From assembly GCF_947502415.1 (NCBI RefSeq), contig NZ_CANMZV010000016.1, forward strand, positions 37,687-61,686: 24,000 nucleotides of DNA. The letters are read 5' to 3'. Below are positions 5,373-22,014 of the stretch, piece by piece (within the stretch, counting starts at the first letter, position 1; every line of letters starts with the position of its first letter). The notes under the pieces were generated by a model, which was not told the DNA's origin, searched no databases, and was given only the letters and a program-made list of their open reading frames with translations. This stretch comes from an uncultured Photobacterium sp. (GTDB lineage Bacteria > Pseudomonadota > Gammaproteobacteria > Enterobacterales > Vibrionaceae). The translations under genes were made by a program, and so were the position numbers.

Positions 5373-5399
5373 AAGCAGTTTTTGTTGTTATTTTAAACA

Positions 5400-5413
5400 T
5401 TCAAAATATTGAA
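5400..5413. promoter_or_regulatory. Candidate operator dyad TTCAA-AATA-TTGAA immediately upstream of the yhfZ-like start codon
   Basis: A perfect inverted repeat whose 14-mer is identical to the reverse complement of 14379-14392. The surrounding 26 nt (5399-5424) match 14334-14359 at 23/26 positions. Confidence 0.5.
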
Positions 5414-5431
5414 GATTAAAATATTGTTACT

Positions 5432-6328: not shown

Positions 6329-6349
6329 TTCATACAACAGGAGTGCGCA

Positions 6350-6727
6350 ATGAAGGATCGCCTAACCTTGTTACTACAAGCCAATGTAATCAGCCAGGAT
6401 GCTTATCAGGCTACCTCTTTGGCCGTAGAGCTTATTTCCCGCCATCTCAATGTTGATGAGAGTAATGAACAGTACCAAATGGCCATGACGCATTTGGCAA
6501 GGGCTTATGATCGTATCAAGTCTGGTGATCCTATTGCCGAAGGCTTAGACCCGGACATTTTCGATGAAATTATATCGGACGAGGGTTTTGAACAAATCAA
6601 CGCCCTGAATCAGGAAATACTTGATTCACTTAATATCAGCAATGTTCCGGAAACAGAAAACTCATTTTTACTGAGCAACCTCTTTTCACTGCACTGTGCA
6701 AGCCAAACCAAGGAGGCTGCATGTTGA
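6350..6727 (+). CDS. yhfY: YhfY-like stand-alone PRD-domain protein
   Basis: 125 aa. It has a PRD-like helix with a conserved His (MAMTHLARAYDRIKSG). AGGAG RBS is present. Its stop overlaps the php start (ATGTTGA). Confidence 0.65.
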   Translation: MKDRLTLLLQANVISQDAYQATSLAVELISRHLNVDESNEQYQMAMTHLARAYDRIKSGDPIAEGLDPDIFDEIISDEGFEQINALNQEILDSLNISNVPETENSFLLSNLFSLHCASQTKEAAC

Positions 6728-7599
6728 TTAATAATGCAGGCTATACCTACTGCCATGAGCACCTACATATCGATTTATCACCACAAAAAGGTGATATCGA
6801 CTGTCGTCTTGATCAATATGAACTGATCAAAGATGAAATGCGCGATCTTATTGATCATGGCGTTTATAACATTATCGAAGTAACAAATTCCTTTATGGGA
6901 AGAAATCCTCAATTTATTGAAAGTTTAATATTCGAAACAGGAATAAATGTACTCCTGTCGACCGGATATTACATTGATGGCTTCTTTCCACCTGAGCTTT
7001 ATTCCAAATCAGCCCAACAGATTAGTCAGGAGATGATTAGGGAAATCATTGTCGGCATTGATGGTAGCAACCTTAAAGCCAGTGTCATCGGCGAAATCGG
7101 CAGCAGCGAAAACACCTTCACCGAAACCGAAAAAACTGTCTTTGAAGCTGCGGCAATGGCTCACTACGAAACAGGCCGTCCAATCTCTACCCACCAGTCC
7201 ATGAGCACAATGGGGCGACAGCAAATCGAGTTGTTCAAAAACTTCGGTGTTGATATGGAAAAGGTGACTATCGGCCACTGTGACCTGAAAGATAACCTTG
7301 ATGAAATTCTCTGGTTACTTGACCAGGGCTGCCACATCCAATTCGACACTATCGGTAAAAACTCTTACTACCCGGATACCAAGCGCTTAGCAATGCTCAA
7401 AGCACTGTCCGAGCGCGGTTTACTCGATCGGGTGATGTTATCAATGGATATCACCCGTCGTTCGCACCTGAAACAAAATGGCGGACTGGGCTTTTGCTAC
7501 CTGATCGAAACCTTTGTACCGATGCTCAAAGAAATTGGCATCAGTCAGGTAGAAATCAACGCCATGTTAAAGCACAACCCCTACACACTTTTCCAATAA
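6721..7599 (+). CDS. php: Phosphotriesterase homology protein (amidohydrolase superfamily, cog1735)
   Basis: N-terminal metal-binding HxH motif (GYTYCHEHLHIDLS). 292 aa. TIM-barrel amidohydrolase pattern with later His/Asp ligands (GHCD, SMDI). Confidence 0.85.
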   Translation: MLINNAGYTYCHEHLHIDLSPQKGDIDCRLDQYELIKDEMRDLIDHGVYNIIEVTNSFMGRNPQFIESLIFETGINVLLSTGYYIDGFFPPELYSKSAQQISQEMIREIIVGIDGSNLKASVIGEIGSSENTFTETEKTVFEAAAMAHYETGRPISTHQSMSTMGRQQIELFKNFGVDMEKVTIGHCDLKDNLDEILWLLDQGCHIQFDTIGKNSYYPDTKRLAMLKALSERGLLDRVMLSMDITRRSHLKQNGGLGFCYLIETFVPMLKEIGISQVEINAMLKHNPYTLFQ

Positions 7600-7626
7600 A
7601 AATAAGTTAAACAGAAGGTTCCCGTT

Positions 7627-7986
7627 ATGAAAAAGATTGGTATTGCAGGACTACAACGCGAGCAAATCAAAGAACAAATTGATATGGCATCACCCGGCCA
7701 ATTTGAATGCCACATCCTCAATGACATGGATGCTGCAATGAAAGTGAAATCTGGCGAGCTTGATTACTACATCGGTTGTTGTAACACCGGCGCAGGCGCT
7801 GCGCTGTCCATCGCTATCGCTATTATTGGCTTCACCCAGAGCTGCACTATTGCCAAACCAGCAATAAAAGCCAAACAAGATGAAGTTCAACGCTTCATTG
7901 ACGAAGGCAAAGTAGCCTTCGGCTTATCCGTTGAACATATTGAACACGCAGTCCCCATGCTCGTCACTTCACTCGCTAATAAATAA
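7627..7986 (+). CDS. yhfU: YhfU-like protein (DUF2620 family)
   Basis: 119 aa with the motif MKKIGIAGLQREQIK...DYYIGCCNTGAGAALSIAIA. It sits between php and the yhfT-like membrane gene, as in E. coli. Confidence 0.7.
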   Translation: MKKIGIAGLQREQIKEQIDMASPGQFECHILNDMDAAMKVKSGELDYYIGCCNTGAGAALSIAIAIIGFTQSCTIAKPAIKAKQDEVQRFIDEGKVAFGLSVEHIEHAVPMLVTSLANK

Positions 7987-7995
7987 GGCTATCAC

Positions 7996-9297
7996 ATGGA
8001 CATAATGCAAATCGGCTTAGTTGCCACGCTCTGTGCCATGACGGCACTTATCGCCAACATGAGCGCTTCTGTCTTCCATGACGGGATACGCCCAATACTG
8101 CCACAGCTGGTCGAAGGAAACATGACACGACGCGATGCCGGTTCTGTGGCTTTCGGCTTGTCGATCGGCTTTGTTGCCTCTGTCGGGATATCTTTCACCT
8201 TGTCGACAGGACTGCTCAACCCCTGGCTGCTATTCCTTCCTACCGATATCATCGGAGTCATGCTCGGAAGCCGATTACTTGCGGCGATTGGAGGTGGTTT
8301 ATGGGGCGTTCTTGTCGTCACCTCACTCAGTGGTGTTAATGCCGTATTAACCGGGTTACCTATAGACGCTCTGGGTGCGCTGGGCGAGCTTGGTACACCA
8401 GTCATGACCGCTTTTGCCTTGTTCCCGCTACTGGCTATTTTCTACCAATTTGGCTGGAAAGCAGGAGCTCTAGCCAGTGCCGTCGTTCTGGTATCTCGGT
8501 TACTGATCATAAAATATACGGGCATCTATCCAGAATCTATCCAGATTTTTGTTGGTATGGTAATGCTTGTCGGAACCGCCATCCATAAAGACATCCAAAA
8601 CAAAAATAACGGGATCAATCCACCCGATATGTCCGGCATGCATAGCCTGTTTGAAGAGCGCACCAAGCGAATCATGAAGAACATGCCATTTCTGGCTGCA
8701 ACAGGTGCACTCATCGCAATCGTGGCCAATGCGGGTATTTTTGCCGGCTCAGAAGTCTCTATTTATTCTCTGGCTGACGCATACAAAATCGCCGACCCAA
8801 TTGAGCAAGATGCCGCAATCAAACAAGTCGCTCTTTCTGAATTCATGCGCGGCCTTGGCTTTGTGCCACTCATCGCCACAACAGCACTGGCTACCGGGGT
8901 ATACGGTGTCGTCGGTATGACCTTTGTGTTCGTCGTCGGCTACCTGGCGCCAAACATTCCCGTTGCAGCCTTGCTCGGCGCAATCACTATCTGCATTGAA
9001 ATTGTCCTGCTTCGTAAAATTGGCCACTTCCTGGAGCAATTCCCATCGATCCGCAACGCTTCGGATAACATTCGAAACTCAATGAATACCCTGATGGAGT
9101 TTGCATTACTGATTGGCGGAGTGCTGGCTGTAATGAAAATGGGATCAACAACCGGCCTGACCATCTTCACTGTTCTGTTCTTCCTTAACGAAGTCATGGG
9201 ACGCCCGATCCTCAAAATCGCAGCACCGGCGGTTGCCGCCATCCTAACCGGTATTGCACTGAATGTGCTGTACGTATTCGGTCTGTTCGCTATCTAG
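7996..9297 (+). CDS. yhfT: YhfT-like polytopic inner-membrane protein, putative transporter
   Basis: 433 aa, highly hydrophobic with roughly 10 or more predicted TM segments. Its size and context match YhfT. Confidence 0.75.
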   Translation: MDIMQIGLVATLCAMTALIANMSASVFHDGIRPILPQLVEGNMTRRDAGSVAFGLSIGFVASVGISFTLSTGLLNPWLLFLPTDIIGVMLGSRLLAAIGGGLWGVLVVTSLSGVNAVLTGLPIDALGALGELGTPVMTAFALFPLLAIFYQFGWKAGALASAVVLVSRLLIIKYTGIYPESIQIFVGMVMLVGTAIHKDIQNKNNGINPPDMSGMHSLFEERTKRIMKNMPFLAATGALIAIVANAGIFAGSEVSIYSLADAYKIADPIEQDAAIKQVALSEFMRGLGFVPLIATTALATGVYGVVGMTFVFVVGYLAPNIPVAALLGAITICIEIVLLRKIGHFLEQFPSIRNASDNIRNSMNTLMEFALLIGGVLAVMKMGSTTGLTIFTVLFFLNEVMGRPILKIAAPAVAAILTGIALNVLYVFGLFAI

Positions 9298-9308
9298 TTA
9301 ACGGGTAA

Positions 9309-9376
9309 AAGAGCCAGTCTGACTTCCCCTTCCACAATCATGGTGACGTAATGGTTACCCTTGTGGACTGGCTCTT
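9309..9376 (+). other. Structured intercistronic inverted repeat between the yhfT-like and yhfX-like genes
   Basis: AAGAGCCAGT (9309-9318) pairs with ACTGGCTCTT (9367-9376). An inner stem pairs CCACAA (9332-9337) with TTGTGG (9361-9366). The 5' side carries an asymmetric bulge of about 13 nt. No U-tract follows. Confidence 0.5.
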
Positions 9377-9399
9377 ATCGTCATTAAAAAGGTGCTTAT

Positions 9400-10578
9400 A
9401 TGTTTCTAAATACGTTAATACAACAAAATCCGGCACTGATTGACGGAGCCATTAAGCTGCTTGAAGATGGGTCGATCCTGCCCGATACCTATGTCATCGA
9501 TGTCGACCAGTTCAAAGAAAATGCCCGTTTAATAAAAGACAAAGCCGATAGTTATGGCATTCATCTCTATGGCATGACCAAACAATTTGGCCGAAATCCA
9601 ATGTTAGCAAAAATGCTTGTCGATGAACTGGGATACGATGGTATTGTCTGCGTCGATTTCAAAGAGGCCCGGCAACTTCACAAAGCCGGAGTGAAAATTG
9701 GCCACATAGGCCACTTAGTTCAACCTCCGAGTCGCTACATTCCTTTTATCGTTTCCGAGATCAAACCAGAAGTCATCACTGTTTATTCCATTGAAAAAGC
9801 ACGAGAGGTTTCAGCCGCTGCTCAACAGGCCAACCGAACCCAAGGCATACTGCTGAAGTTCTTCCGTTCCAGTGATCAGCTGTACCCTAACCAGGAAGCA
9901 GGCTTTCCCATCGAATCACTCGAAGGGGTCATTTCCCAAATTTCTGCCCTACCGAACCTTCATATTTCGGGACTGACCCATTTTCCCTGCTTCCTCTATA
10001 ACCCTAAAACACATAGTACTGAGCCAACACCGAATATCAAGACACTATACGCGGCTAAACAACAAGCTGACGAACTGGGTTACCGTTTCACTCAACTCAA
10101 TTCCCCTTCAGCAACCTGCTGCGAAACCATACCGAATATTAAGCACTTCTCCGGAACGCACGGTGAACCGGGTCATGCCCTGACCGGAACCATTCCTGCC
10201 AATCTGGATGGCAGTCAGCCGGAAAAGATCGCCATGCTGTATATCAGCGAAGTCTCGCACCATTTCGGGAGAAAAAGTTATTGCTACGGTGGCGGCTATT
10301 ACAGCCGAAGCCAATTAACCAGTGCACTAATCCGAGAACAAATACAGGCCGAAACCAAAGATACGATCGTCAATATCAGCAACGGGGATGAATCCAATAT
10401 CGACTATTACCTACAGTTCGATTCGCCCTGCGCTATTGGGACTCCTGTCGTCATGGCCTTTCGCACACAAGTTTTTGTTACACGAAGTGATGTTGCTCTT
10501 GTCGAGGGACTATCAAGCAATGCTCCGAAGCTGCTTGGTTTATTCGATGCACAAGGTAATGAGGTGATACATGGCTAA
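9400..10578 (+). CDS. yhfX: YhfX-like PLP-dependent enzyme (alanine-racemase N-terminal fold family)
   Basis: 392 aa. The N-terminal TIM-like region and C-terminal beta domain are arranged as in alanine racemase or ornithine decarboxylase fold type III. AAGGTG RBS is present. The gene overlaps the next gene by 8 nt. Confidence 0.65.
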   Translation: MFLNTLIQQNPALIDGAIKLLEDGSILPDTYVIDVDQFKENARLIKDKADSYGIHLYGMTKQFGRNPMLAKMLVDELGYDGIVCVDFKEARQLHKAGVKIGHIGHLVQPPSRYIPFIVSEIKPEVITVYSIEKAREVSAAAQQANRTQGILLKFFRSSDQLYPNQEAGFPIESLEGVISQISALPNLHISGLTHFPCFLYNPKTHSTEPTPNIKTLYAAKQQADELGYRFTQLNSPSATCCETIPNIKHFSGTHGEPGHALTGTIPANLDGSQPEKIAMLYISEVSHHFGRKSYCYGGGYYSRSQLTSALIREQIQAETKDTIVNISNGDESNIDYYLQFDSPCAIGTPVVMAFRTQVFVTRSDVALVEGLSSNAPKLLGLFDAQGNEVIHG

Positions 10579-11830
10579 ATTTATTGTCGTGGTATTAGAT
10601 GGTTTTGGCATTGGTGAAATGCCGGATGTTGCAACAGTCCGCCCACAAGATCTGGGCGCCAATACGGCAGGAAAACTACTGAATCATTTTCCGCTCAAAA
10701 GGCTCCCGACACTGGAAAAACTAGGGCTAATCAATATTGTCGGCGCAACTAACTCGGTGATGAACCTCGCTCCAGACGCAAACTGGGGAAAATCAAAGCT
10801 CGCTCACTACGGATGTGACACTTTCATGGGTCACCAGGAAATCATGGGCACACACCCCAAGCCGCCCATGATCAAACCGTTTCAGCAATCCATTGATGAT
10901 ATAGAAGAAGCGCTCAATCTAGCCGGCTATCAAGTTGAGCGAATCAGCCGGAAACAACTGCAATTACTGATGGTCAATGGCAGTGTTGTAATCGGTGATA
11001 ACCTTGAAGCCGATCTGGGTCAAGTCTATAACCTGACAGCGAATTTCGGCCAGATCAGTTTCGATGACGTCAAAAAAATCGGACAAGTAGTTCGTTCTGC
11101 CAATGCGGTAAGTCGCAATATCGCTTTTGGTGGATTCGTCCCGACAATACAGAACATCCTGAATGCCATAGAAACCAAAACCGATAAAAGTGGCAAGGAA
11201 TTGTATATCGGTGTCAATGCGCCCGATTCCGGTACTTACGACAATGGATTCCAGGTTGTCCACCTTGGCTATGGTGTCAATGCCAAAACCCAAGTGCCCT
11301 ATCAGCTGAATCAAGCAGGTATTCATACTTACCTCTACGGTAAAGTTGCCGATATTGTCCAGAACGACACCGGCACATCTTTTACCTCTGTCGTTGATAC
11401 CGATCGAGTTTTCGAACTGCTAATCAATGATCTGCACCAATACGATAAAGGTTTTTTCTGCGCCAATGTGCAGGAAACTGATCTCTCCGGCCACCAGCAG
11501 GATCCCAAGCGCTACTGGACAATTTTAGAAAAAGCAGATCGGGGATTAGCTTCGGTAATCGCTGAGATGGAGCAAGGGGATATGCTGGTTGTCATGGCCG
11601 ACCATGGTAATGACCCATTCATCGGCCATACCAAACATACCCGAGAACAAGTGCCGTTGATGGTCTATAGCCCCGGAGTAAAAGGCGTTCAGCTCGATAC
11701 CTGCGAAACGATGGCCGATATTGGTGCCAGCGTCGCAGCTTACTTTGGCGCCCCTTTCCCAGAATTCGGTTGTCCGGTGATAGCAACGAAAATCAAGAGG
11801 GCAACCCCCACACTCTCAGAAGCGTTCTAA
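10571..11830 (+). CDS. yhfW: YhfW-like phosphopentomutase-family metalloenzyme
   Basis: The N-terminus (KFIVVVLDGFGIGEMPD) and the ADHGNDP motif are typical of the DeoB/phosphopentomutase (alkaline phosphatase superfamily) group. 419 aa. Confidence 0.8.
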   Translation: MAKFIVVVLDGFGIGEMPDVATVRPQDLGANTAGKLLNHFPLKRLPTLEKLGLINIVGATNSVMNLAPDANWGKSKLAHYGCDTFMGHQEIMGTHPKPPMIKPFQQSIDDIEEALNLAGYQVERISRKQLQLLMVNGSVVIGDNLEADLGQVYNLTANFGQISFDDVKKIGQVVRSANAVSRNIAFGGFVPTIQNILNAIETKTDKSGKELYIGVNAPDSGTYDNGFQVVHLGYGVNAKTQVPYQLNQAGIHTYLYGKVADIVQNDTGTSFTSVVDTDRVFELLINDLHQYDKGFFCANVQETDLSGHQQDPKRYWTILEKADRGLASVIAEMEQGDMLVVMADHGNDPFIGHTKHTREQVPLMVYSPGVKGVQLDTCETMADIGASVAAYFGAPFPEFGCPVIATKIKRATPTLSEAF

Positions 11831-11936: not shown

Positions 11937-14120
11937 ATGACATTCAAGAAGACCATAACCGTGGCAATTGCGCTGGCTTTAGCTCCCGCAGCCTTTGCCT
12001 CAAACGGCGGTATGCAAGACTTTCTCGATAGTTTGAGAGACTTTGAATCAGGCATAAACCCGAGCCTGAGCACTTTCTACTACGACAACCTAGACAACCC
12101 CGTATTCACCTATGCCAAAGTTACAAAACCAGGTCGCTTAGTCCGGGATTGTGCTACCGGTATGATGATATCGGAGCCAACCACCATCAATCAGTTTTTC
12201 CAGAAACTCGGCATCGACGACATCTACAACCCTGCCACTCCACACAACCGCGACATGTTCCGTTCAATGCAATACAACTCAATGAATGCATGGGGCTTTG
12301 TCGGCTATCAGCTAGGTGAAGCCGTACTTATTGATGCCGGCTACTACAGCCCCAATACTGTGACCATCGACGGTAAAAAATATGACAGCTTCTACATGTT
12401 TGTTCCTGATTCCACATGGATAGGATGTAAAACCGAGGCGCTTTCAGAAATTCCAGGATCGGGCGGCAATCAGGTTTACGTCACTGATACAAACCGCTGG
12501 GAAGGTAAGTTTGTCGGTAAAAACGGCATAAATAACTTCAACGACTTGTTACTACCTGAAAAACAGGAACTAGTGATCCGGGATGCAATGCATTTCAACT
12601 ATAAGATCATTTCTAAATTGCTGTCAGATGCCAATATGACCTGGGAGCAAGCCCTTTCGAAAAGCTGGCCAGATAAAGATGACAACGGCCAACCAATTCA
12701 GGTACAGGCAACGATGTCAGGTATCCTGGCTGCAGCACACTTACGTGGAGCCTGGGGTACTGGCGCACTTCTGACCAAAGATAAAATTACCTGCGATGAA
12801 ATAGGAACTTGCATCACCAAGTATGTACATAAATTTGGTGACTACGATACCCTATTTGATGTACCGGGAGACAGCACTACTCACGGTTCCATCTATGATG
12901 AAGTACTTACTGCCGGTTGGGGCAATGACACCGTCATTACCGGCGGCGGCAACAACCAAATACTGCTAAACGAGCAAAACGGTTCGACAACAACCATTAC
13001 CGATTTTGTTCTTAACAAAGATCTAATCATTCTACGTGGATGGAAAGCGGCAGATCCGCTAGCATCCCTTACAGTGACTGATGCTAACGGCAACAGTGAA
13101 TTGCAGTTTGCCGGACAAACAGTGGTACTTAAAGGCGTTGCTGCTAAAGATGTACAGGCAAACCCATCAGCTGTTATCGAAAAGTCAGATGTTTACACAC
13201 TGGCTTGGAACACCGGCAAGCAAGTCGTTGAAGGCTTCAACCCTGCAGTTGATAAAATTGAAGGTAGTGCAGGCATCGGCTTCAAACACCTTAAAGCCTA
13301 TGAAACAGAAAGATCTGTCATCATTGGTCCACAGGCAGAAGATGGCGGAATTTATGCCTCTTATGAGCTAGTAGGACTAACATTGGCAGATCTTACACCA
13401 GAGATGTTTGTTAACATCACCGGTGGGTACGACCGCCTTGGTTACATTGTTCCACTTAACCACATTAACTGGGGTTGGAACATGATGCTGACTGTCAAAA
13501 CTTTTGACGTCAAAAAAACTGTCCTCACAGTACCAAGCAATCAACCAGTTCCATTCTCAGCCCTCAAACTGACCCAAGAAGGCGCCAATGTCGTTATTAC
13601 GCTGCTAGAACCCTATGCCAAAGGTGATAAGAAGAAGATTGTTCTCCATAACACTGATGTCAAACTACTTAGTGCAGCTAATTTCTCGGGCTTCTCAGGT
13701 AACTACAGTGAAGCCACAACCGACATTTCTGTAATGTTCGATATTAGCGTATCTGTTGATGGTTCTGGTGGTACGATTTCTCCAGTTCCTGGCGTTGATG
13801 GGGTTTTGCAGGCTAAAGGTGGCTCAGACTTCGTCATCAACTTTATCCCTGATGCTGGATATAAAGTGAAATCAATTGTTGTTGACGGTATTACTTATCC
13901 GGCAGCAAACTCCTACACCTTCTCTGCGGTAAAAGGCAACCACCAACTGAGTGTAAGCTTCGAACAAGGATCATCCTGCCCGGCCCTTTGGGATAGTAAT
14001 GCCGTATATGTCGGTGGAGATCGCGTAACATACGAGGGGAGAATATACCAAGCAAGCTGGTGGACTAAAGGGAATAAACCTGACTTAGGAGGCCCTTGGA
14101 AACCTGTTGGCAATTGTTAA
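11937..14120 (+). CDS. Secreted multidomain protein: unassigned N-terminal ~300 aa, RTX-like Gly/Asp segment, InlB-B-repeat-like domain, C-terminal CBM5/12 chitin-binding module
   Basis: Sec signal peptide (MTFKKTITVAIALALAPAAFA|SNG). GWGNDTVITGGGNNQILL resembles Ca-binding RTX nonapeptides. GGTISPVPG...GYKVKSIVVDGITY...SVSFE fits the divergent InlB B-repeat pattern. The C-terminal WDSNAVYVGGDRVTYEGRIYQASWWTKGNKPDLGGPWKPVG is a classic CBM5/12 pattern. Strong AAGGAG RBS. Confidence 0.8.
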   Translation: MTFKKTITVAIALALAPAAFASNGGMQDFLDSLRDFESGINPSLSTFYYDNLDNPVFTYAKVTKPGRLVRDCATGMMISEPTTINQFFQKLGIDDIYNPATPHNRDMFRSMQYNSMNAWGFVGYQLGEAVLIDAGYYSPNTVTIDGKKYDSFYMFVPDSTWIGCKTEALSEIPGSGGNQVYVTDTNRWEGKFVGKNGINNFNDLLLPEKQELVIRDAMHFNYKIISKLLSDANMTWEQALSKSWPDKDDNGQPIQVQATMSGILAAAHLRGAWGTGALLTKDKITCDEIGTCITKYVHKFGDYDTLFDVPGDSTTHGSIYDEVLTAGWGNDTVITGGGNNQILLNEQNGSTTTITDFVLNKDLIILRGWKAADPLASLTVTDANGNSELQFAGQTVVLKGVAAKDVQANPSAVIEKSDVYTLAWNTGKQVVEGFNPAVDKIEGSAGIGFKHLKAYETERSVIIGPQAEDGGIYASYELVGLTLADLTPEMFVNITGGYDRLGYIVPLNHINWGWNMMLTVKTFDVKKTVLTVPSNQPVPFSALKLTQEGANVVITLLEPYAKGDKKKIVLHNTDVKLLSAANFSGFSGNYSEATTDISVMFDISVSVDGSGGTISPVPGVDGVLQAKGGSDFVINFIPDAGYKVKSIVVDGITYPAANSYTFSAVKGNHQLSVSFEQGSSCPALWDSNAVYVGGDRVTYEGRIYQASWWTKGNKPDLGGPWKPVGNC

Positions 14121-14150
14121 TTTATCAACCTCTATAACCAAATAGAATAT

Positions 14151-14182
14151 ATGGTCGCGATATTTTGTCGCGACCATTTTTT
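14151..14182 (+). terminator. Rho-independent terminator
   Basis: A perfect 10-bp stem, ATGGTCGCGA (14151-14160) with TCGCGACCAT (14168-14177), followed by TTTTTT. Confidence 0.85.
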
Positions 14183-14334
14183 GTTAGTCCAGACTAAAGG
14201 AAAAAAATAAAAACAAACCTCATAAACAACATAAAAGTTCATTCTAGATTAAGGTGCAAATATTACACCACCTAACAAATGTAATACTTACAAACATATC
14301 AAAACAAGTGGAATTTAATTCACAAAAACATATA

Positions 14335-14348
14335 TTCAAAATATTGAG
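14335..14348. promoter_or_regulatory. Candidate operator dyad TTCAA-AATA-TTGAG (one arm mismatch) upstream of the PTS operon
   Basis: 13/14 identical to 5400-5413. The extended segment 14334-14359 matches 5399-5424 at 23/26 positions. Confidence 0.45.
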
Positions 14349-14378
14349 GATAAGAATATGTGAGCGCAAACATTTATT

Positions 14379-14392
14379 TTCAATATTTTGAA
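14379..14392. promoter_or_regulatory. Candidate operator dyad TTCAA-TATT-TTGAA upstream of the PTS operon (inverted copy)
   Basis: The exact reverse complement of the 14-mer at 5400-5413. It is 44 bp centre-to-centre from the 14335-14348 site and about 54 nt upstream of the IIB start. Confidence 0.5.
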
Positions 14393-14445
14393 AATTAATA
14401 TTCATATGTACCCTAACCTATTAAAGAAATACAAGGATGACCACT

Positions 14446-14757
14446 ATGAATATATTCCTATGCTGCTCCGCAGGCATGTCTACCAGTATGCTGGTAAAAA
14501 AAATGCAAGATGCAGCCAAGAGCCAAGGTATCGAATGTTCTATTAACGCTTATTCTATTTCTGAGTTTGAACCAGCCCTTGCTGAAAATGATGTCTGCCT
14601 GGTTGCCCCTCAGGTTAAATTCCAATATGAACAGTTTAAATCCAGAGCAGAAGAAAAAGGCAAAGCATGCGGACTTATTGAAATGATGGATTACGGCATG
14701 ATGAAAGGTGACGTCATTCTTAAGCAAGCTGTAGAACTCTACAACTCAATAAAGTAA
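14446..14757 (+). CDS. PTS lactose/cellobiose-family EIIB component
   Basis: MNIFLCCSAGMSTSMLVKKMQ contains the phospho-Cys loop typical of ChbB/CelA-type IIB. The ORF track starts at 14437. I prefer the ATG at 14446 because AAGGA lies 8 nt upstream of it. Confidence 0.9.
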   Translation: MNIFLCCSAGMSTSMLVKKMQDAAKSQGIECSINAYSISEFEPALAENDVCLVAPQVKFQYEQFKSRAEEKGKACGLIEMMDYGMMKGDVILKQAVELYNSIK

Positions 14758-14767
14758 GGAATACATA

Positions 14768-16093
14768 ATGAGTATCTTTAATAAGGTCATGCAGTTTGTG
14801 GAAGCTGTTGTCGCCCCCATGGCGGCAAAGGTTTCCTGCCAGCGCCATATTAATGCAATCAAAGATGGTTTCGTCGCCACAATGCCATTTTTGATTGTCG
14901 GCTCCCTGTTACTTGTTTTAGCCTTCCCACCGGGAGAAGGAAACTTCTTCCTCGACGGCTGGCACTCTTTAGTAGACAAGATCGGCCAGCAAAACATCCT
15001 CGCATCTTTCCAGATCAGCATGGGTATCTTTGCTGTCTATGCCGCTTTCAGTATCGGCTATAACCTCGCAGAATCATATGGTCTTCGCTCCCTGAACTCC
15101 GGCCTGTTATCCTTGTTCACCTTCCTGCTGGCAGTTGCTCCGGTGCAGTTCATTGATGATATCGGTGGCATTATGCCAATCGCTAACATGGGCGGTACCG
15201 GTGCGTTTACCGCCATTCTTACAGGCTTATTAGTGCCTGAACTACAGCGGTTCTTACGAGACAAAAACATTCGCCTGAAAATGCCAGATGCCGTACCACC
15301 AAAAATTTCAGCGTCATTTGACCTGCTCATTCCGGTTGTGATTGTTTGTATTGTCGTTGTTTCGATTAATGCCATGCTATCAAACTATGATCTGAACATC
15401 CCAACCGCCATTATGGAGATCTTCAAACCACTAGTTTCAGCCTCTGACTCGTTCTTTGCCTGTCTGCTGGCAGTTATCATGATTCAGCTACTGTGGTTCG
15501 GTGGTATTCACGGTTCATCCGTTGTTGTTACCGGGATATTGTATCCGGTTTTAATTATCAACCTTGGACTAAACCAGGAAGCATTGGCAGCAGGTCAGGA
15601 ACTGCCTAAAATATTCGTAAACCCAATTCTGGATTTCTTTATTTTCGTTGGTGGTGCTGGTGGCACATGGGGTTTTGTTGTATTGATGATGCGTTCTAAA
15701 TCAACTCACCTTCGTACTATCGGTAAAATGTCGATTATTCCAAGTACATTTAACATTAATGAACCAGTTATTTTCGGCACCCCAATTGTAATGAACCCTA
15801 ACTATTTCATTCCTTGGATGCTATCGCCAATGATTAATACCTGTATCGTTTGGGCAGCATTTAAAACGGAAATAATTTCAAAAATTATTGCCTTACCTCC
15901 CTGGACAATGCCTGCGCCTATCGGTGCTGTAATTGCAACAAATTCAAGTACAGCCGCATTTGTTGTTGTCCTCTGTGTTCTTGTCAGTGTCATTATTTAT
16001 TATCCGTTCTTCAAGATTCACGAAAAGCAACTTCTTGAAGAAGAAAAAGCGACTGAAGAACAGGAAATGGAATTAAAACCATCTAAGGCCTAA
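14768..16093 (+). CDS. PTS lactose/cellobiose-family EIIC permease
   Basis: 441 aa polytopic protein with ChbC/CelB-like motifs (INAIKDGF, LLWFGGIHG, INEPVIFGTPIVMNP, PWTMPAPIG). Confidence 0.9.
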   Translation: MSIFNKVMQFVEAVVAPMAAKVSCQRHINAIKDGFVATMPFLIVGSLLLVLAFPPGEGNFFLDGWHSLVDKIGQQNILASFQISMGIFAVYAAFSIGYNLAESYGLRSLNSGLLSLFTFLLAVAPVQFIDDIGGIMPIANMGGTGAFTAILTGLLVPELQRFLRDKNIRLKMPDAVPPKISASFDLLIPVVIVCIVVVSINAMLSNYDLNIPTAIMEIFKPLVSASDSFFACLLAVIMIQLLWFGGIHGSSVVVTGILYPVLIINLGLNQEALAAGQELPKIFVNPILDFFIFVGGAGGTWGFVVLMMRSKSTHLRTIGKMSIIPSTFNINEPVIFGTPIVMNPNYFIPWMLSPMINTCIVWAAFKTEIISKIIALPPWTMPAPIGAVIATNSSTAAFVVVLCVLVSVIIYYPFFKIHEKQLLEEEKATEEQEMELKPSKA

Positions 16094-16095
16094 TC

Positions 16096-16467
16096 ATGAC
16101 ATTTGAAATTAACAAGCAAGAAGATATCACCGAAGAATTTTTGATGACGCTGCTCTGTAAAGTTGGAGAAGCACGAGCATCATTAATGAATGCCATTTCT
16201 TTAGCTAAAAAAGGTGACTTTGCCCAGTCTGAAGAAATGATTGCCATTGCAGATGATGCTCTGGCCGATGTCCACCGGACACAGACAGGACTTATTGGCT
16301 TTGATGAAGGAGAAGGAAAAGTCACTATGACTTTAATCCTGACCCATATTCAGGACCACATAATGACGACCATGCTATGTCGTGATTTGGCAACAGAAAT
16401 CATTGCGATCCACTCGATTATCGCTAACAAAGAGGAATTGTCAGAAAATGAAAAAGCGTATATTTGA
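16096..16467 (+). CDS. PTS lactose/cellobiose-family EIIA component
   Basis: 123 aa helical protein with the ChbA-like pattern (GEARASLMNAI..AKKGDF..AE..I..A...L..VHRTQT...LTHIQDHIMTT), including the conserved His region. Confidence 0.85.
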   Translation: MTFEINKQEDITEEFLMTLLCKVGEARASLMNAISLAKKGDFAQSEEMIAIADDALADVHRTQTGLIGFDEGEGKVTMTLILTHIQDHIMTTMLCRDLATEIIAIHSIIANKEELSENEKAYI

Positions 16468-17338
16468 TTTAACACGCCACGATATCGCCAATATGAGTCG
16501 TACCGATATTGTCGATTGCATCCGTCGCTCTGAAGGGCGTTCCATGATGGTTGAAAATGTCACCTCTATGGCTCCGCCGGTTGACCTCGTCTCCGGAGCC
16601 GAAATTGCCGCCGCCTTTGGCGCTGACATGATCACCCTCAACTGCCTCGATCTAATGGAACCTCGCGCGGAAGTTAACGGTGCAGCAGATCATGGAAGCG
16701 CTGATCATTTCACCGTACAAGAACTCAAACAGCTTTCCGGACGCATGATCGGCTGTAACCTGGAGCCCGTGCCTCAAGGCTTCACCGATATCAATATCGG
16801 CCGTTCATTAACAAAAGAGACCGTTGAAAAGGCTGTTGAACTCGGCATGAACTACATCATGCTGACAGGTAACCCGGGAATGATGGTCTCGCAAGAAACA
16901 ATTCTTAATGCGATAGCACTCACCCGCGAAGTATCGAAAGACATCCTGATCATCGCCGGCAAAATGCACGGAGGCGGCGTAGGTAACGACTATAACCTGG
17001 AATTCATTCCTCAATTTGCAGAAGCTGGCGCTGACATCATGATGTTCCCGGCTCCTTACACGACTCCAGGAATGAACCCGGCGCTAGCCTCAACGGTCAT
17101 GGATGCAGTCCATGAAGCCGGTATGCTGGGTATGCTTGCCATTGGAACCTCACAAGAGGGCGCTTCAGAAAGTTATATCGAAAAGGTCACCATTGAATCT
17201 AAAGGCGCGGGAGCTGATATCGTTCACATTGGCGATGGCGGCTACGGTGGCATTGCTGTTCCGGAAAATATCATGCGAATGGGCATCACACTACGTGGCA
17301 GACGCCACCAGTTCAAACGCATGGCTAACCATCGCTAA
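16448..17338 (+). CDS. Uncharacterised 296-aa protein, probable alpha/beta (TIM-barrel-like) enzyme, fourth gene of the PTS operon
   Basis: Start chosen at the ATG at 16448 (MKKRIFDL...), which overlaps the IIA stop by 20 nt. The ORF-track extension from 16382 would run through the IIA coding sequence. Alternating beta/alpha pattern with Gly-rich loops (LTGNPG, IIAGKMHGGG, GADIVHIGDGGYGG). I recognise no family with confidence. Confidence 0.7.
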   Translation: MKKRIFDLTRHDIANMSRTDIVDCIRRSEGRSMMVENVTSMAPPVDLVSGAEIAAAFGADMITLNCLDLMEPRAEVNGAADHGSADHFTVQELKQLSGRMIGCNLEPVPQGFTDINIGRSLTKETVEKAVELGMNYIMLTGNPGMMVSQETILNAIALTREVSKDILIIAGKMHGGGVGNDYNLEFIPQFAEAGADIMMFPAPYTTPGMNPALASTVMDAVHEAGMLGMLAIGTSQEGASESYIEKVTIESKGAGADIVHIGDGGYGGIAVPENIMRMGITLRGRRHQFKRMANHR

Positions 17339-17396
17339 TCATCGGCGTGAATAATGGTTTATGTCCCTTTTTGGGGCCATAACCCTATAACTCAAC

Positions 17397-17431
17397 GAGC
17401 CCCATCCACTGCCTTGGGGCTCATTATTTTT
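17397..17431 (+). terminator. Rho-independent terminator of the PTS operon
   Basis: Stem GAGCCCCA (17397-17404) pairs with TGGGGCTC (17415-17422), followed by ATTATTTTT. Confidence 0.75.
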
Positions 17432-17552
17432 ACGAAGAAAAACTCTGCTTTCAAATTATCGTCTTGCCGAAGAACCAATAAACTCTTACTGAACAAGCAT
17501 CTTGAAGTTACTTGGGTATAATAAGCTAAAGCTTTCAAGATGATATTTAATA

Positions 17553-18131
17553 ATGACTAACTTACTCAAAGAACTGGAAAAGATGGGACTTAACTCTCTG
17601 AGCTTCACTGAGCAGGAAACCTCTTTGCTGGAACAATTTATCGATCATAGTTCAGCGTTCTTTGACAATGTCTGCCAACACAAGCCGGATAAACCACCCC
17701 ATGATATGGCTCTGGGGCTACTTACCAAAGCTCACCAAGAAGCATTCGATAATTATCAGGCCACCCAGCCAAAAATTTCCGAACTTCAAACTATGTTCAC
17801 CGATAACGTCGGCGCCGAACATGCCAGCAAGTTTTCAACACTCAATCAGGCCGAGCTTAGTGTTATTTCATCATTGTGGTTTATGGCACAAGGCTTCACT
17901 GGTATTGATTTCAGCTATGCCAATGATAAAGCAGCAGAAACAGCCGAGCTGCTCACAGAGAATCAAACGTCAACAGAAGATACAAAAAAGAAGTCGATAA
18001 AGAATAGTGAAGATTATCGTTCATTGTTTATGAAAGCTTACTACACAGGCATTGATGCGGCACATCAGAATCAACCACACCTATCATTTTTGTTAACAAT
18101 CAAAAACTATCTAAAACACCTGTTTAAATAG
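17553..18131 (+). CDS. Hypothetical protein (192 aa), no recognisable domain
   Basis: A long ORF with plausible composition and no signal peptide. The RBS is weak or absent. A competing 112-aa ORF in another frame looks like low-complexity noise. Confidence 0.5.
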   Translation: MTNLLKELEKMGLNSLSFTEQETSLLEQFIDHSSAFFDNVCQHKPDKPPHDMALGLLTKAHQEAFDNYQATQPKISELQTMFTDNVGAEHASKFSTLNQAELSVISSLWFMAQGFTGIDFSYANDKAAETAELLTENQTSTEDTKKKSIKNSEDYRSLFMKAYYTGIDAAHQNQPHLSFLLTIKNYLKHLFK

Positions 18132-18396
18132 AACTTCCCCCTTTAATCTGCAGTACTTTAAGCCATATTTCCATTAATTTTGGATGTTGAGGCACTGCAT
18201 TTTTAAAGGCATATAAAATCCATAGTGATTAAAACATGGCATTCAGTGAAAAAACTTTCATCAGCTAAGTTTTTAACACCAAACCGATTTAACATAAATA
18301 CATACAAACTTTACAAAAACGATCATTGAGCATTTTTCACTCAAGCGATAAACTGCTCATGCTTTAAACAAATATGTTGTTCCTTATACTTTATTC

Positions 18397-18429
18397 TACG
18401 CCTATCACTATTTGATAGGCGTATTTTTT
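18397..18429 (+). terminator. Rho-independent terminator, plus-strand oriented, ~265 nt downstream of the nearest plus-strand CDS
   Basis: An 11-bp stem, TACGCCTATCA (18397-18407) with TGATAGGCGTA (18413-18423), followed by TTTTTT. There is no T-tract in the minus orientation. Confidence 0.7.
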
Positions 18430-18459
18430 AAGGGCGTAAGAAAGAGTCCCCTTACCAAG

Positions 18460-19230
18460 TTACTGTGTCAGCTCCTCATCAACCCAATATTTCGAACCGG
18501 AAATGTTGGCATCAAGCAGTAGACCTTTCTCACCAATCTGATAAATCGCCATACCACCATTGTACTTAGCTGCCAGCTCTGCACTGTCTGTTCCGGCGAC
18601 AACCCCCGCTTCTGACGTAGCTTCCCAGCCATCTGTCACGAAACTGTCGAAGGTTTTCTTATCTTCGAAAAAGATCAACTGCTGGTAAAACTTGCCGCCA
18701 ATTCCGAGCGCTAAGCCAGCACCAAACATTTTCATGTATGTTCGCTTATCGGTCTTCCGATTGACCGCTACCCCCGCCCCTTGGTTGGTGTGAAGCATTA
18801 AAGAAAACTTACGGGAATCAAACACGGCATAACCATAAGCACTATCAAATAACAACTTGGCTGACGGCTGTTCGTTAAACAAACGTACCAATGCCGTATC
18901 AGACATAGTATCTAACGCCAAACGAGCCTCTTCCGGGGTTTCAGGCTCCAGCATTTCATCAAGCTTTGCTTCACCGGCTTCAAGCCATTCTTCACCTTTT
19001 TCTATCGATGCATCGGTCCACTCACCAGCGGTATTAAATGCATCCTCTCCCCACTCTGAAACAGAATCCCAGGTCTCTTTGGAAAAGTCAGTAACATCCT
19101 GCCAGGCTTTTTTCGAACCTTCACTGACCTGTTGACCAAGATCCGACGCCGCTTCCTTAAATTCCTCCCAACTGGCATGAGCCGGAGTCACAGCAAGGCA
19201 TAATACAGCAACAATTACCTTCAACTTCAC
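18460..19230 (-). CDS. Secreted protein with a Trp/acidic repeat N-terminal region and a SYLF/DUF500 (Ysc84-like) C-terminal domain
   Basis: GTG start with GGAGGG 6 nt upstream. Signal peptide MKLKVIVAVLCLAVTPAHA|SW. The C-terminal ~140 aa (AYGYAVFDS..GAGVAVNR...GAGLALGIGGKFYQQLIFFED...W.ATSEAGVVAG) follows the SYLF lipid-binding domain pattern. This assignment is from pattern memory only. Confidence 0.6.
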   Translation of the reverse strand: MKLKVIVAVLCLAVTPAHASWEEFKEAASDLGQQVSEGSKKAWQDVTDFSKETWDSVSEWGEDAFNTAGEWTDASIEKGEEWLEAGEAKLDEMLEPETPEEARLALDTMSDTALVRLFNEQPSAKLLFDSAYGYAVFDSRKFSLMLHTNQGAGVAVNRKTDKRTYMKMFGAGLALGIGGKFYQQLIFFEDKKTFDSFVTDGWEATSEAGVVAGTDSAELAAKYNGGMAIYQIGEKGLLLDANISGSKYWVDEELTQ

Positions 19231-19295: not shown

Positions 19296-19829
19296 CTATT
19301 TCTTCTTCGGACGGAAAGGCTTCATAACCTCTTCATTACACTCAAGGTATGGACCTTCCATCAGGTCGATACAATAAGGTATAGCAGGAAAAACCGCATC
19401 CAGACATTCGCGAATAGATTTCGGCTTACCCGGCAGGTTAACAATCAGGCTGTCACCGCGCAGGCCTGCTGTCTGGCGAGACAAAATCGCCGTCGGGACA
19501 AATTTCAGTGACTCTGCACGCATCAACTCGCCAAAACCTGGCATCATGCGATCGCAAACCGCTTCGGTAGCCTCAGGCGTCACATCACGTTTAGCTGGGC
19601 CTGTACCGCCGGTTGTTACGATCAGGCTACAATCTTGCTCATCCGCCATTTTGATCAGTGTCGCTTCGATAATATCCTGCTCATCAGGGATCACTTCATA
19701 AACAGGCTCCCATTCTGATGTCAGGTAATCATTCAGTGTTTCAATAATCGCCTTACCAGAAATATCATCGTACACGCCTGCACTTGCGCGGTCACTGACC
19801 GTTACAATACCGATTTTTGCTTTTGTCAT
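19296..19829 (-). CDS. mog: Molybdopterin adenylyltransferase (MogA)
   Basis: KIGIVTVSDRASAGVYDDISG...TTGGTGPAKRDVTPEAT...MPGFGELMR...PTAILSRQ...NLPGKPKSIRE aligns closely with E. coli MogA. Confidence 0.9.
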   Translation of the reverse strand: MTKAKIGIVTVSDRASAGVYDDISGKAIIETLNDYLTSEWEPVYEVIPDEQDIIEATLIKMADEQDCSLIVTTGGTGPAKRDVTPEATEAVCDRMMPGFGELMRAESLKFVPTAILSRQTAGLRGDSLIVNLPGKPKSIRECLDAVFPAIPYCIDLMEGPYLECNEEVMKPFRPKKK

Positions 19830-20001
19830 TAATTATCCCTCAGGCTTTAACCTTGCTTGTTTTCATTATTACTGACTGGCTAGCAACCGCCAACCAGCTA
19901 TTCAATCAAATTGAATGCAAGTTTAAGGAATAACAGAAGCGGGATAAACCTTAAAGTGAAAAAACGTGGCAAACGTGGTAGTTAATCCTAATCTACAGCT
20001 A

Positions 20002-20035
20002 GAAAAAAGCCCCGCTTAAACGAGCAGGGCTTTTA
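20002..20035 (-). terminator. Intrinsic terminator at the end of the APE-type cluster
   Basis: Stem AGCCCCGCT (20008-20016) pairs with AGCAGGGCT (20023-20031) with one mismatch. It is flanked by AAAAAA and TTTT, so the minus-strand reading has a 6-T tract. Confidence 0.7.
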
Positions 20036-20059
20036 ATTGAAAAGGCATTAAACAGGTAA

Positions 20060-21292
20060 TTAACCCTGCCAGCGCTTGAAGATTAGTGATGTATTAATGC
20101 CACCAAACGCAAAGTTATTGCTCATGATGTACTGACAATCAATCTCACGTCCTTCACCACGGATATAATCCAGGTTTCCACAACGATCATCAATATTGTC
20201 CAGGTTCAACGTTGGACTAAACCAACCCGTATGCATCATTTCCAGGCTAAGCCAAGCTTCGATCGCACCACATGCACCAAGCGTATGTCCTAAGTAGCTC
20301 TTAAGGGAACTGATTGGCGCATTATCACCAAAGATATTGGCTGTCGCATTACTTTCAGCAATATCGCCTTTTTCAGTTGCCGTACCGTGAGCTGAAATGT
20401 AATCAATCGCTAGCGGAGAAAGATCTGCGTCTTTCAGCGCCATTTCCATACACAGCTGCATGGTTTCCATCTGAGGCTGAGTAACATGTGCAGCATCGCA
20501 GTTACTTGCAAAACCAACAAGCTCAGCATAAATTTTCGCACCACGAGCCACTGCATGCTCATATTCTTCAAGAACCAGCGTACCGGCACCTTCTCCGATC
20601 ACCAAACCATCACGTTCAGTGTCATACGGGCGCGGTGTCGACTTCGGCGCATCATTTTTCAAACTTGTCGCGAAAAGGGTATCGAATACTGCCGATTCAG
20701 TCGGGCACAACTCTTCAGCACCACCAGCAACCATCACTGTCTGGTAACCATGCTTGATTGCCTCATAGGCGTAACCAATCGCCTGGCTGCCCGAAGTACA
20801 AGCACTGCTCGTCGGGATGACTCGACCACGCAGGCCAAAAAACAAGCCAACATTTACTGCTGTTGTATGCGGCATCATCTGAACATAAGTTGTAGCCGTA
20901 ATTGCCTTGGTGTCTTTTTCATTCAGCATCACACCGAACGCACCAATCGCTGGCGTACTGCCAGTAGATGAACCATAAGCGATGCCTGTCTGACCATTGG
21001 TCAGAACCTCATTACCGATAAGCCCACTTTGAATCAAGGCATTTTCACTAGCCAGTGTTGATAGCTTAGAAACACGTCCCATACCGCGCACTTTCTTGCG
21101 GGTATAGTGAGCCGGCAGTGTGAAGTTATCGATTGGCGCGGCCAGCTTGGTATTCAGCCCATTATATTGCTCATAACTCGGCATATATTGTGATGCATTT
21201 TCGCAAGCACGCAGCTTCGGCTCAATGCTCTGCCAATCGTTACCCAAAGCAGTAACCCCGGACATACCGGTAACAACTACGCGACGACTCAT
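20060..21292 (-). CDS. Beta-ketoacyl-ACP synthase (FabB/F-like), ApeR-type position in an aryl-polyene cluster
   Basis: The Cys-His-His triad is intact (SSACTSGSQ, SAHGTATEKGD, YLGHTLGACG). The start overlaps the upstream KR stop (ATGA). Confidence 0.85.
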   Translation of the reverse strand: MSRRVVVTGMSGVTALGNDWQSIEPKLRACENASQYMPSYEQYNGLNTKLAAPIDNFTLPAHYTRKKVRGMGRVSKLSTLASENALIQSGLIGNEVLTNGQTGIAYGSSTGSTPAIGAFGVMLNEKDTKAITATTYVQMMPHTTAVNVGLFFGLRGRVIPTSSACTSGSQAIGYAYEAIKHGYQTVMVAGGAEELCPTESAVFDTLFATSLKNDAPKSTPRPYDTERDGLVIGEGAGTLVLEEYEHAVARGAKIYAELVGFASNCDAAHVTQPQMETMQLCMEMALKDADLSPLAIDYISAHGTATEKGDIAESNATANIFGDNAPISSLKSYLGHTLGACGAIEAWLSLEMMHTGWFSPTLNLDNIDDRCGNLDYIRGEGREIDCQYIMSNNFAFGGINTSLIFKRWQG

Positions 21293-22014
21293 ACCAAACC
21301 TCCGTTCACCGAAATCACCTGACGAGTTACATAACCCGCAATATCTGACATTAAATAACTCACCAAGCCTGCAACTTCTTCCGGTTCGCCCATACGGCGC
21401 AGCGGCACCTGCGGCAGCGCATGCTCTTTAACGTGCTCATCAACCATACCGGTATCAATCAGGCCCGGTGCCACACAGTTTACGGTGATCTTACGTTTAG
21501 CCAGCTCCAATGCCAATGACTTGGTCGCACCAATCACACCGGCTTTCGCTGCACTGTAATTAGTCTGGCCCCGGTTGCCCATGATCCCCGATACAGAAGC
21601 TAAGGTAACAATACGGCCACCTTTACGCAGCTTCACCATCGGCATTACACATGGGTGAAAAACATTATAAAAACTATCTAAGTTGGTATGAATTACCCCA
21701 TCCCACTCTTCTTCGGTCATGGCCGGAAAAGCAGTATCACGAGTAATTCCCGCATTGCTCACCACGCCGTAATACGCACCGTGCTCAGCGATATCTGCCT
21801 CAAGGCGCTCGCGGCATTGTGCGCGGTCACTAATATCAAATTGGATCAGGCGTCCGGTACCACCGGCTTTTTCAATTTCTGCCAGTGTTAATTCGGCACC
21901 GGCTTTATCACTCATATAATGAACAATAATTGCAAACCCATCTTTTGCGAGTTGAGTAGCGACAGCGCGTCCGATGCCTTTACTCGCCCCTGTAACTAAA
22001 ACCTGTCGAATCAT
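21289..22014 (-). CDS. 3-oxoacyl-ACP reductase (SDR, FabG-like), ApeQ-type position
   Basis: TGASKGIGRA cofactor motif and the YSAAK catalytic motif. ATGA overlaps at both ends. Confidence 0.9.
   Translation of the reverse strand: MIRQVLVTGASKGIGRAVATQLAKDGFAIIVHYMSDKAGAELTLAEIEKAGGTGRLIQFDISDRAQCRERLEADIAEHGAYYGVVSNAGITRDTAFPAMTEEEWDGVIHTNLDSFYNVFHPCVMPMVKLRKGGRIVTLASVSGIMGNRGQTNYSAAKAGVIGATKSLALELAKRKITVNCVAPGLIDTGMVDEHVKEHALPQVPLRRMGEPEEVAGLVSYLMSDIAGYVTRQVISVNGGLV

Follow-up and report, generated by a model that had tools for sequence, protein, structure and literature searches.

The regulatory systems closest to the one described here are well known. GntR repressors of the FadR and HutC/NagR types recognize operators with cores of the GT-N-AC type. 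The Escherichia coli chb operon is under the control of NagC, ChbR and CRP; at the CytR-CRP promoters (deoP2, cdd, udp) the repressor brackets a CRP site, and GalR and NagC (nagE-nagB) repress cooperatively, or through looping, from two operators. We have analyzed a stretch of 24,000 nucleotides from an uncultured Photobacterium sp. (contig NZ_CANMZV010000016.1; hereafter the window), in which two copies of a short dyad precede a phosphotransferase system (PTS) operon and a third one precedes a yhfZ-like gene. These dyads are most probably operators of a YhfZ-family GntR-type repressor, in the simplest case the YhfZ encoded in the window itself, placed on a CRP-type PTS promoter. The predicted system resembles the FadR and HutC/NagR repressors in having an N-terminal winged helix-turn-helix (HTH), a C-terminal effector domain, palindromic dimer-type operators, an operator over the core promoter and an apparently autoregulated operon headed by the regulator gene. 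It differs from them in its DNA-binding domain, HTH_41, in its effector domain, YhfZ_C and not FCD or UTRA, and in its operator core, predicted as TTCA-N6-TGAA and not GT-N-AC. The predicted YhfZ operator is a new and well-supported case of a familiar kind, a local GntR-type repressor with palindromic operators on a CRP-type promoter. Full-text literature searches retrieved no paper on the operator, regulon or ligand of YhfZ and no characterized member of its family; the only match near the topic was an "attenuator" ahead of E. coli yhfZ, attributed to a BIME repeat.

The PTS-proximal dyads occupy the intergenic region 14121-14436, between a gene encoding a 727-amino-acid (aa) protein with a CBM5/12 module and the PTS IIB gene. 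This region has a very high AT content and many short inverted repeats. Positions 14335-14348 read TTCAAAATATTGAG and positions 14379-14392 read TTCAATATTTTGAA, which is the reverse complement of TTCAAAATATTGAG at 13 of 14 positions; the spacer GTGAGCGCAAAC (14360-14371) lies between them. A search of the window found the exact 13-mer TTCAAAATATTGA at 14335-14347 (plus strand), at 14380-14392 (minus strand) and, for the third time, at 5400-5412 (plus strand), 20 nucleotides (nt) ahead of the yhfZ-like start codon. When up to two mismatches are allowed, TTCAAAATATTGA has 8 matches in the window against 1.46 expected, a number reached by none of 100 shuffles. The dyad centres, at 14341.5 and 14385.5, are 44 bp apart. 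An earlier interpretation made from the letters of this DNA (the sequence-only reading) had given both the dyad coordinates and this distance correctly throughout. It had also described a composite palindrome of about 58 bp, which is real but has a size nearer 64 bp, with 22-nt arms (14332-14353 and 14374-14395) that are 86% complementary and separated by 20 nt. Its proposal that both dyads face the same side of the helix holds only approximately: the spacing of 44 bp in the window, and of 45 bp in two orthologous promoters (L040 and L036), amounts to 4.2-4.3 helical turns, an offset of 70-100 degrees. The convergent orientation that it emphasized has little meaning for nearly palindromic sites and varies among orthologous promoters. 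We discarded it as a functional feature, as the best-scoring strand differs between orthologs and both dyads have the same orientation in L036.

The full element is a 20-bp palindrome, ATCTTCA-N6-TGAAGAT, with the invariant core TTCA-N6-TGAA. It was characterized in 80 yhfZ loci from distinct species, each with 10 kb of flanking DNA on either side (1.63 Mb in total), using a weight matrix trained on 64 unique yhfZ-upstream sites from other genomes, with the window excluded (training median 25.0 bits). In the window, this matrix exceeded 14 bits at four places only: the yhfZ leader (predicted operator ACATTCAAAATATTGAAGAT, 5397-5416, plus strand, 28.4 bits, 15 nt before the yhfZ-like ATG), the interior of php (6905-6924, 20.6 bits) and the two PTS dyads, which we designate Op1 (predicted operator ATATTCAAAATATTGAGGAT, 14332-14351, 25.3 bits) and Op2 (predicted operator ATTTTCAATATTTTGAAAAT, 14376-14395, 24.9 bits). 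No match reaching 14 bits appeared in 20 shuffles of the window. The claim that the yhfZ promoter carries the same dyad as the PTS promoter is borne out by the exact 13-mer at 5400-5412 and by the score of the operator that contains it. From E. coli to Photobacterium, the motif is present upstream of yhfZ, with its position kept, in 78 of the 80 loci; its Vibrionaceae consensus, ATCTTCAAAATAATGAAGAT, corresponds to ATCTTCA-N6-TGAAGAT and ends 5-15 nt ahead of the yhfZ ATG. Across the 1.63 Mb around the 80 yhfZ genes, matches of at least 16 bits are nearly confined to four contexts (upstream of yhfZ, inside php, upstream of yhfX and upstream of PTS IIB/IIC), with a handful elsewhere, which argues for a local rather than a global regulator. 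YhfZ is the only DNA-binding protein that always accompanies the motif.

The contexts differ between lineages. Sites upstream of yhfX are mainly enterobacterial, and those within php belong to Vibrionaceae, where they lie at +175 to +184 of the gene, mostly at +181 or +184. Enterobacteria (L043-L080, and E. coli, L081) have two tandem sites 24 bp apart ahead of yhfZ, behind a CRP-like TGTGA-N6-TCTCC or TGTGA-N6-TCGCC, and a third site 30-40 nt ahead of yhfX. In the E. coli locus these are ATCTTCATTTTTATGAAGAT and ATATTCACTTTATTGAAAAT ahead of yhfZ (7148-7191) and a site 31 nt before yhfX (8514-8533), the sole matches in 15.6 kb, so that the motif is directly testable in E. coli K-12. The yhfZ promoter also shows a CRP-like TCACA or TGTGA half-site, 51 nt upstream of the operator in the main group of loci and 46 nt upstream in L038-L042; the distance is fixed within each group, and the CRP position that it implies is non-canonical. 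In many vibrios a TTGAnn-N16-TATCTT arrangement is visible at this promoter.

Downstream of the yhfZ operator, positions 5432-11830 code for yhfZ (HTH_41 plus YhfZ_C), yhfY (PRD only), php, yhfU (DUF2620), yhfT, yhfX and yhfW. The yhfZ-like gene (5432-6328, plus strand), our candidate repressor gene, encodes a protein that matches Pfam HTH_41 (8.4e-17) and YhfZ_C (5.9e-76) and scores 351.7 bits against the NCBIfam model NF041241 (YhfZ_full equivalog), for which the cut-off is 260. Its YhfZ_C domain, which is periplasmic-binding-protein-like, matches PDB 2OZZ, and the whole protein is 87-88% identical to YhfZ of P. alginatilyticum, P. kasasachensis and P. proteolyticum. Among 85 YhfZ homologs, which are about 45% identical overall between orders, the HTH_41 residues S42-V43-G44, Q47, A49 and G65-R66-N67-G68 are invariant or nearly so, in keeping with the conservation of the operator across orders. 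The yhfY-like gene (6350-6727, plus strand) follows yhfZ in most loci and encodes a 125-aa protein with a single weak PRD match (Pfam, 25 bits against a cut-off of 23). Compared with other PRD regulators, in which the PRD is fused to a CAT domain (BglG/LicT) or to an HTH (MtlR/LicR), the YhfY-like protein of the window consists of a PRD alone; we found no DNA- or RNA-binding domain in it with Pfam, and it is therefore not a candidate binder by itself, although it might be a PTS-coupled modulator. The sequence-only reading had named both proteins as the candidate regulators, which thus stands for YhfZ, with its HTH_41 domain, but not for YhfY. It was right that the PTS operon lacks a regulator gene of its own among the called open reading frames (ORFs) of the window, in which no regulator other than the yhfZ-like and yhfY-like genes could be recognized.

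This PTS operon (14437-17338, plus strand) comprises IIB (14437-14757), IIC (14768-16093), IIA (16096-16467) and a gene for a 296-aa DUF7916 protein (16448-17338), which match Pfam PTS_IIB, PTS_EIIC, PTS_IIA and DUF7916, respectively; NCBIfam places the IIC component in the lactose/cellobiose subfamily. A 192-aa ORF downstream of DUF7916 matched no family. The IIB-IIC-IIA-DUF7916 module adjoins the yhf cluster in Thaumasiovibrio, V. ezurae, V. maritimus, a V. amylolyticus-like contig and Photobacterium sp. J15, and it is divergent from a yhfZ paralog in P. frigidiphilum, P. lipolyticum, P. sagamiensis, V. hepatarius and V. mediterranei. Linkage either to the yhfZ cluster or to a divergent yhfZ paralog is a trait of the 296-aa DUF7916 class. 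The sites recur before such operons in Photobacterium, Vibrio and Thaumasiovibrio and keep their position with respect to the IIB ATG as well: they lie 41 and 85 nt before it in the window, 43 and 88 nt in V. ezurae, and 48 and 93 nt in P. lipolyticum; P. frigidiphilum, P. sagamiensis and HN18 have a site at 92-93 nt, and L082, L083, L084 and J15 (L086) a single proximal site at 38-50 nt. In V. maritimus, IIC, DUF7916 and yhfZ follow one another on the same strand; a site lies 33 nt ahead of IIC, and yhfZ has none of its own.

Three operons of a paralogous class with a 293-aa DUF7916 protein (V. mimicus, V. scophthalmi and P. swingsii) served as a control. They are without a nearby yhfZ, and no YhfZ-type match was found upstream of their IIB genes (L085, L088, L089). 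V. scophthalmi and P. swingsii, but not V. mimicus, have a LacI-family gene upstream of the operon, and V. mimicus and P. swingsii have a GH20 chitobiase gene downstream of it. These LacI-linked operons share with the window the same four-gene PTS/DUF7916 module, with DUF7916 62-68% identical, but have neither yhfZ nor a YhfZ-type site. The IIB promoters of V. scophthalmi and P. swingsii carry AAACCGGTTTC-type palindromes, which are likely LacI-type operators. The proposal that the dyads are repressor operators common to the PTS and yhfZ promoters, with YhfZ as the candidate, is strongly supported by independent comparative evidence: the 78 yhfZ loci, the orthologous yhfZ-linked PTS operons and the absence of the motif from the three operons without yhfZ. 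The locus presents a full-length YhfZ, a match to the motif and a conserved site position coupled to the co-occurrence of the regulator, as would be expected for a member of a YhfZ-family regulon.

In the closest relatives the PTS operon has decayed. P. alginatilyticum, P. kasasachensis and P. proteolyticum (L001-L003, about 16400-18700) as well as MCCC 1A19761 (L005, 18630-20500) have a short IIB remnant before IIC, are missing IIA and DUF7916, and have an IIC gene that abuts the 192-aa ORF. Of the two operators, L005 retains Op2 alone.

Alignment of eleven YhfZ-linked IIB promoters reveals a constant architecture: a TGTGA, 12 nt, the 20 bp of Op2 and, immediately after, a -10-like hexamer. 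The 12-nt gap is exact in the window and in L086, L036, L020, L040, L082, L083 and L084, and within 1-2 nt of that length in L028, L030 and L031; in one promoter TGTGA is replaced by TGTGC. The hexamer following Op2 is TAATAT, TATTAT, TATAAT or TAAAAT in ten of the eleven promoters and TAACCT in L086, and in the window and seven further promoters TGTGA lies 32 nt ahead of it. Sites at the Op2 position (L086, L040, L036, L082, L083, L084 and L005) lie 38-50 nt before the IIB ATG and abut the -10 hexamer, and those at the Op1 position (L040, L036, L028, L020 and L031) are found 85-93 nt before the ATG and 7-8 nt before TGTGA. In the predicted set only Op2 is universal, and it forms the conserved core; Op1 would be an auxiliary operator present in some genomes only.

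In the window, the predicted -10 hexamer TAATAT occupies positions 14397-14402 (plus strand), with a transcription start expected near 14408-14410. If this hexamer is taken to span -12 to -7, the CRP-like site (14356-14377; core TGTGA at 14359-14363, N6, ACATT at 14370-14374) would be centred at -41.5 as TGTGA-N6-N5, Op2 would cover -32 to -13 and Op1 about -76 to -57. The spacer between the dyads, with its conserved TGTGA, is therefore not neutral and is probably the activator site. A scan of 14100-14460 for sigma-70 promoters with two hexamers returned no plus-strand promoter and no -35 consensus; the lack of a recognizable -35 fits an activator-dependent promoter and is not evidence that a promoter is absent. 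With this arrangement, the PTS promoter looks like one of the class-II CRP-dependent type. Upstream of Op1, a block ggAATTTAATTCACAaaa (TGGAA-N6-TCACA, 14309-14324) is conserved in L005, L086 and L040, although its spacing from Op1 varies by about 10 bp; it may be a second CRP site, near -92. Further upstream, a terminator-like hairpin with a T-run (14151-14177, plus strand; 12-pair stem, 6 GC pairs) follows the 727-aa CBM5/12 gene and thereby separates it from the PTS promoter.

Starting from these observations on the identity, statistics, position and gene linkage of the motif, we infer a scheme that covers which protein binds, whether it represses, what CRP does, where transcription starts, whether binding is cooperative and what induces the system. 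A YhfZ-family winged-helix dimer would recognize each 20-bp palindrome, the likely binder being the YhfZ-like protein encoded 9 kb upstream of the PTS dyads. CRP would activate the PTS promoter from the TGTGA half-site, and a dimer on Op2 would occlude the core promoter: given the predicted extent of Op2, repressor bound there would keep RNA polymerase off the promoter and collide with CRP on its promoter-proximal side. Op1, immediately upstream of the CRP site, would probably strengthen repression, either through cooperative binding across this site or by hindering CRP. The same protein would autoregulate yhfZ-yhfY-php-yhfUTXW via the operator at 5397-5416. Since the operator is common to the yhfZ and PTS promoters, the yhf cluster and the IIB-IIC-IIA-DUF7916 operon would form one regulon, induced presumably by a ligand of the YhfZ_C domain and possibly with some input from the PRD protein YhfY. 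The promoter geometry recalls those of CytR-CRP, GalR and NagC, since two presumed repressor sites flank a CRP-type site about four helical turns apart, and the possible second CRP-like half-site at 14309-14324 would add to the likeness with CytR-CRP promoters. The window promoter differs from them in its spacing, which is off-phase by 70-100 degrees, and in an upstream operator that is dispensable in several orthologs.

Several points weigh against this scheme. The promoter positions given above depend on the model from which they are derived, and the CRP-like site has a poor right half, which in the window matches the TGTGA-N6-TCACA consensus at only 2 of 5 positions. In the closest syntenic relative, Photobacterium sp. 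J15, Op1 has degenerated, and L082-L084 lack it, so that the operator pair is not essential to the system; moreover, 44-45 bp is not a whole number of helical turns. The searchable literature contains no data on YhfZ binding or regulation that we could find. Finally, divergent yhfZ paralogs reside beside IIB in L083, L084, L020, L028, L030, L031 and L036, and the true binder might thus be a paralog of the YhfZ family encoded outside the window and dedicated to the PTS operon, like the divergent yhfZ2 genes of V. hepatarius, V. mediterranei and P. frigidiphilum, with the window YhfZ engaging only in cross-talk. P. alginatilyticum indeed has two yhfZ genes, and a deep clade is made up of the V. 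hepatarius and V. mediterranei paralogs, which share 40-44% identity with the others and whose promoters still match the matrix. We nonetheless consider this explanation unlikely: no such paralog lies beside the PTS operon in the window or in the syntenic J15, where the operon directly follows the yhf cluster, and both Op1 and Op2 hold the exact 13-mer of the window's own yhfZ operator. The paralogs that diverge from PTS IIB were located at 6801-7697 in L083 and 6820-7716 in L084, and in the locus pairs L020/L022, L028/L024, L036/L025 and L031/L021. P. frigidiphilum and its relatives have two YhfZ copies per genome, 89-96% identical, the second of which heads a yhfZ-php-yhfU-yhfT set without yhfY.

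It is very unlikely that the protein binding the motif is an unrelated regulator which only happens to accompany these genes, such as NagC/Mlc, CytR or another amino-sugar or global regulator. The cellobiose/chitobiose type of the PTS, the chitin-binding CBM5/12 module encoded next to it and the AT-richness of the sites, which NagC sites share, would all be compatible with such a regulator. However, the motif tracks yhfZ in enterobacteria, where chitin genes are not nearby, hardly occurs in some 1.6 Mb of flanking DNA and is missing from the yhfZ-less PTS-DUF7916 class, although two of its three operons include a chitobiase gene. NagC/Mlc sites are 23 bp long, an odd length, with only TT (-6, -5) and AA (+5, +6) invariant, that is, TT-N9-AA (PMC4288165); the YhfZ-type core TTCA-N6-TGAA gives TT-N10-AA in an even-length element of 20 bp with an invariant C and G. 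By this rule we discarded a NagC/Mlc operator.

The window operon and E. coli chbBCARFG are alike in their IIB-IIC-IIA components of the lactose/cellobiose family, a CRP-type site, repressor sites (predicted in the window) at the promoter and a chitin-related neighbour. The window operon differs in carrying DUF7916 and no ChbR (AraC-type), ChbF or ChbG, and in sites that do not fit the NagC/Mlc rule and point to YhfZ as the regulator.

That the 64-bp composite palindrome works as a cruciform or at the RNA level, be it as an attenuator, a terminator or a processing hairpin, appears highly improbable, in spite of the strong fold of positions 14326-14401 (19-bp stem, -19.8 kcal/mol, z = -5.7 against shuffles). 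The palindrome sits ahead of the conserved -10 hexamer and hence outside the PTS transcript, and the gene before it ends in a terminator of its own (14151-14177). The stem is not followed by a U-tract and matches no Rfam family. Across genomes it is the arm sequence, TTCA/TGAA, that is conserved and not the pairing: there is no covariation pattern, several orthologs have a single site, and the two P. lipolyticum sites complement each other no further than the dyad symmetry of each implies. We rejected the RNA-structure explanation on these grounds. Nor can the dyads plausibly be chance palindromes of an AT-rich intergenic region full of short inverted repeats, given three exact 13-mers, two 25-bit matches to an independent matrix, no shuffle at or above 14 bits and a position kept across genera.

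Besides the operators proposed for YhfZ at the two promoters, the site inside php, at +184 of the gene in the window, recurs in nearly all Vibrionaceae loci. It codes for N-P-Q/H-F-I-E with codons AAT CCT CAx TTT ATT GAA that are nearly invariant, at the synonymous level, in about 40 Vibrionaceae; a few loci depart from them, for instance the P. frigidiphilum group with CAT in place of CCT, L031 with AAC and occasional loci with GAG. The neighbouring Gly, Thr and Ile codons vary freely, and enterobacterial php genes encode the same NPQF with varied codons and without the site. Such frozen synonymous codons suggest selection at the DNA level for an intragenic operator, which php would carry about 1.5 kb downstream of the yhfZ operator.

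The genes around the cluster deserve some attention. The 727-aa protein (11937-14120) has a C-terminal CBM5/12 module and a faint RTX-like stretch; for its N-terminal 650 residues we found no family or solved relative. Its gene adjoins yhfW in many Photobacterium and also in Aeromonas sobria and Thaumasiovibrio. On the downstream side of the PTS operon, 19296-23973 (minus strand) holds an aryl-polyene-type cluster (ketosynthases, ketoreductase, ApeP-like dehydratase, DUF3261), in a synteny also seen in Photobacterium sp. J15. In V. comitans (L019, 12850-16682), genes for a sulfatase and a radical-SAM/SPASM maturase stand behind two YhfZ-type sites as an insertion in the yhf cluster, which ends in a NagB-like glucosamine-6-phosphate deaminase (19879-20670); in V. 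mediterranei (L084, 16729-20192), a sulfatase and a SPASM enzyme are encoded near the YhfZ-linked PTS operon. These sulfatase and deaminase neighbours hint at a sulfated or amino-sugar substrate for the regulon.

Taken jointly, these elements allow a broader picture that we put forward tentatively and hold to be, in its entirety, on the doubtful side. The dyads would reveal a YhfZ motif and regulon tying yhfZYXW-php-yhfUTS to PTS-DUF7916, to the secreted CBM5/12 protein and, in some vibrios, to a sulfatase, its maturase and a NagB-like deaminase, in a PTS-coupled pathway for a compound derived from chitin, chitosan or sulfated amino sugars. In the boldest version, YhfZ would be set jointly by its ligand and by PTS-phosphorylated YhfY, as a "split" PRD regulator, and would use the site in the php codons or the one near yhfX as an auxiliary operator acting from a distance.

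As a mechanism, a local repressor that overlaps a CRP-dependent promoter is nothing unusual. Both YhfZ and the yhf/php cluster are kept in E. coli K-12 and in many other Gammaproteobacteria without an assigned function, ligand or binding site. The 20-bp operator model, together with its predicted targets (yhfZ, the yhfX or php-internal site and, in Vibrionaceae, also the chitobiose-type PTS/DUF7916 operon), makes YhfZ testable in a model organism. Membership in the predicted regulon also offers the first contextual clue to the substrate, in the form of a chitin-binding protein, a PTS, a sulfatase and a glucosamine-6-phosphate-deaminase-like gene.

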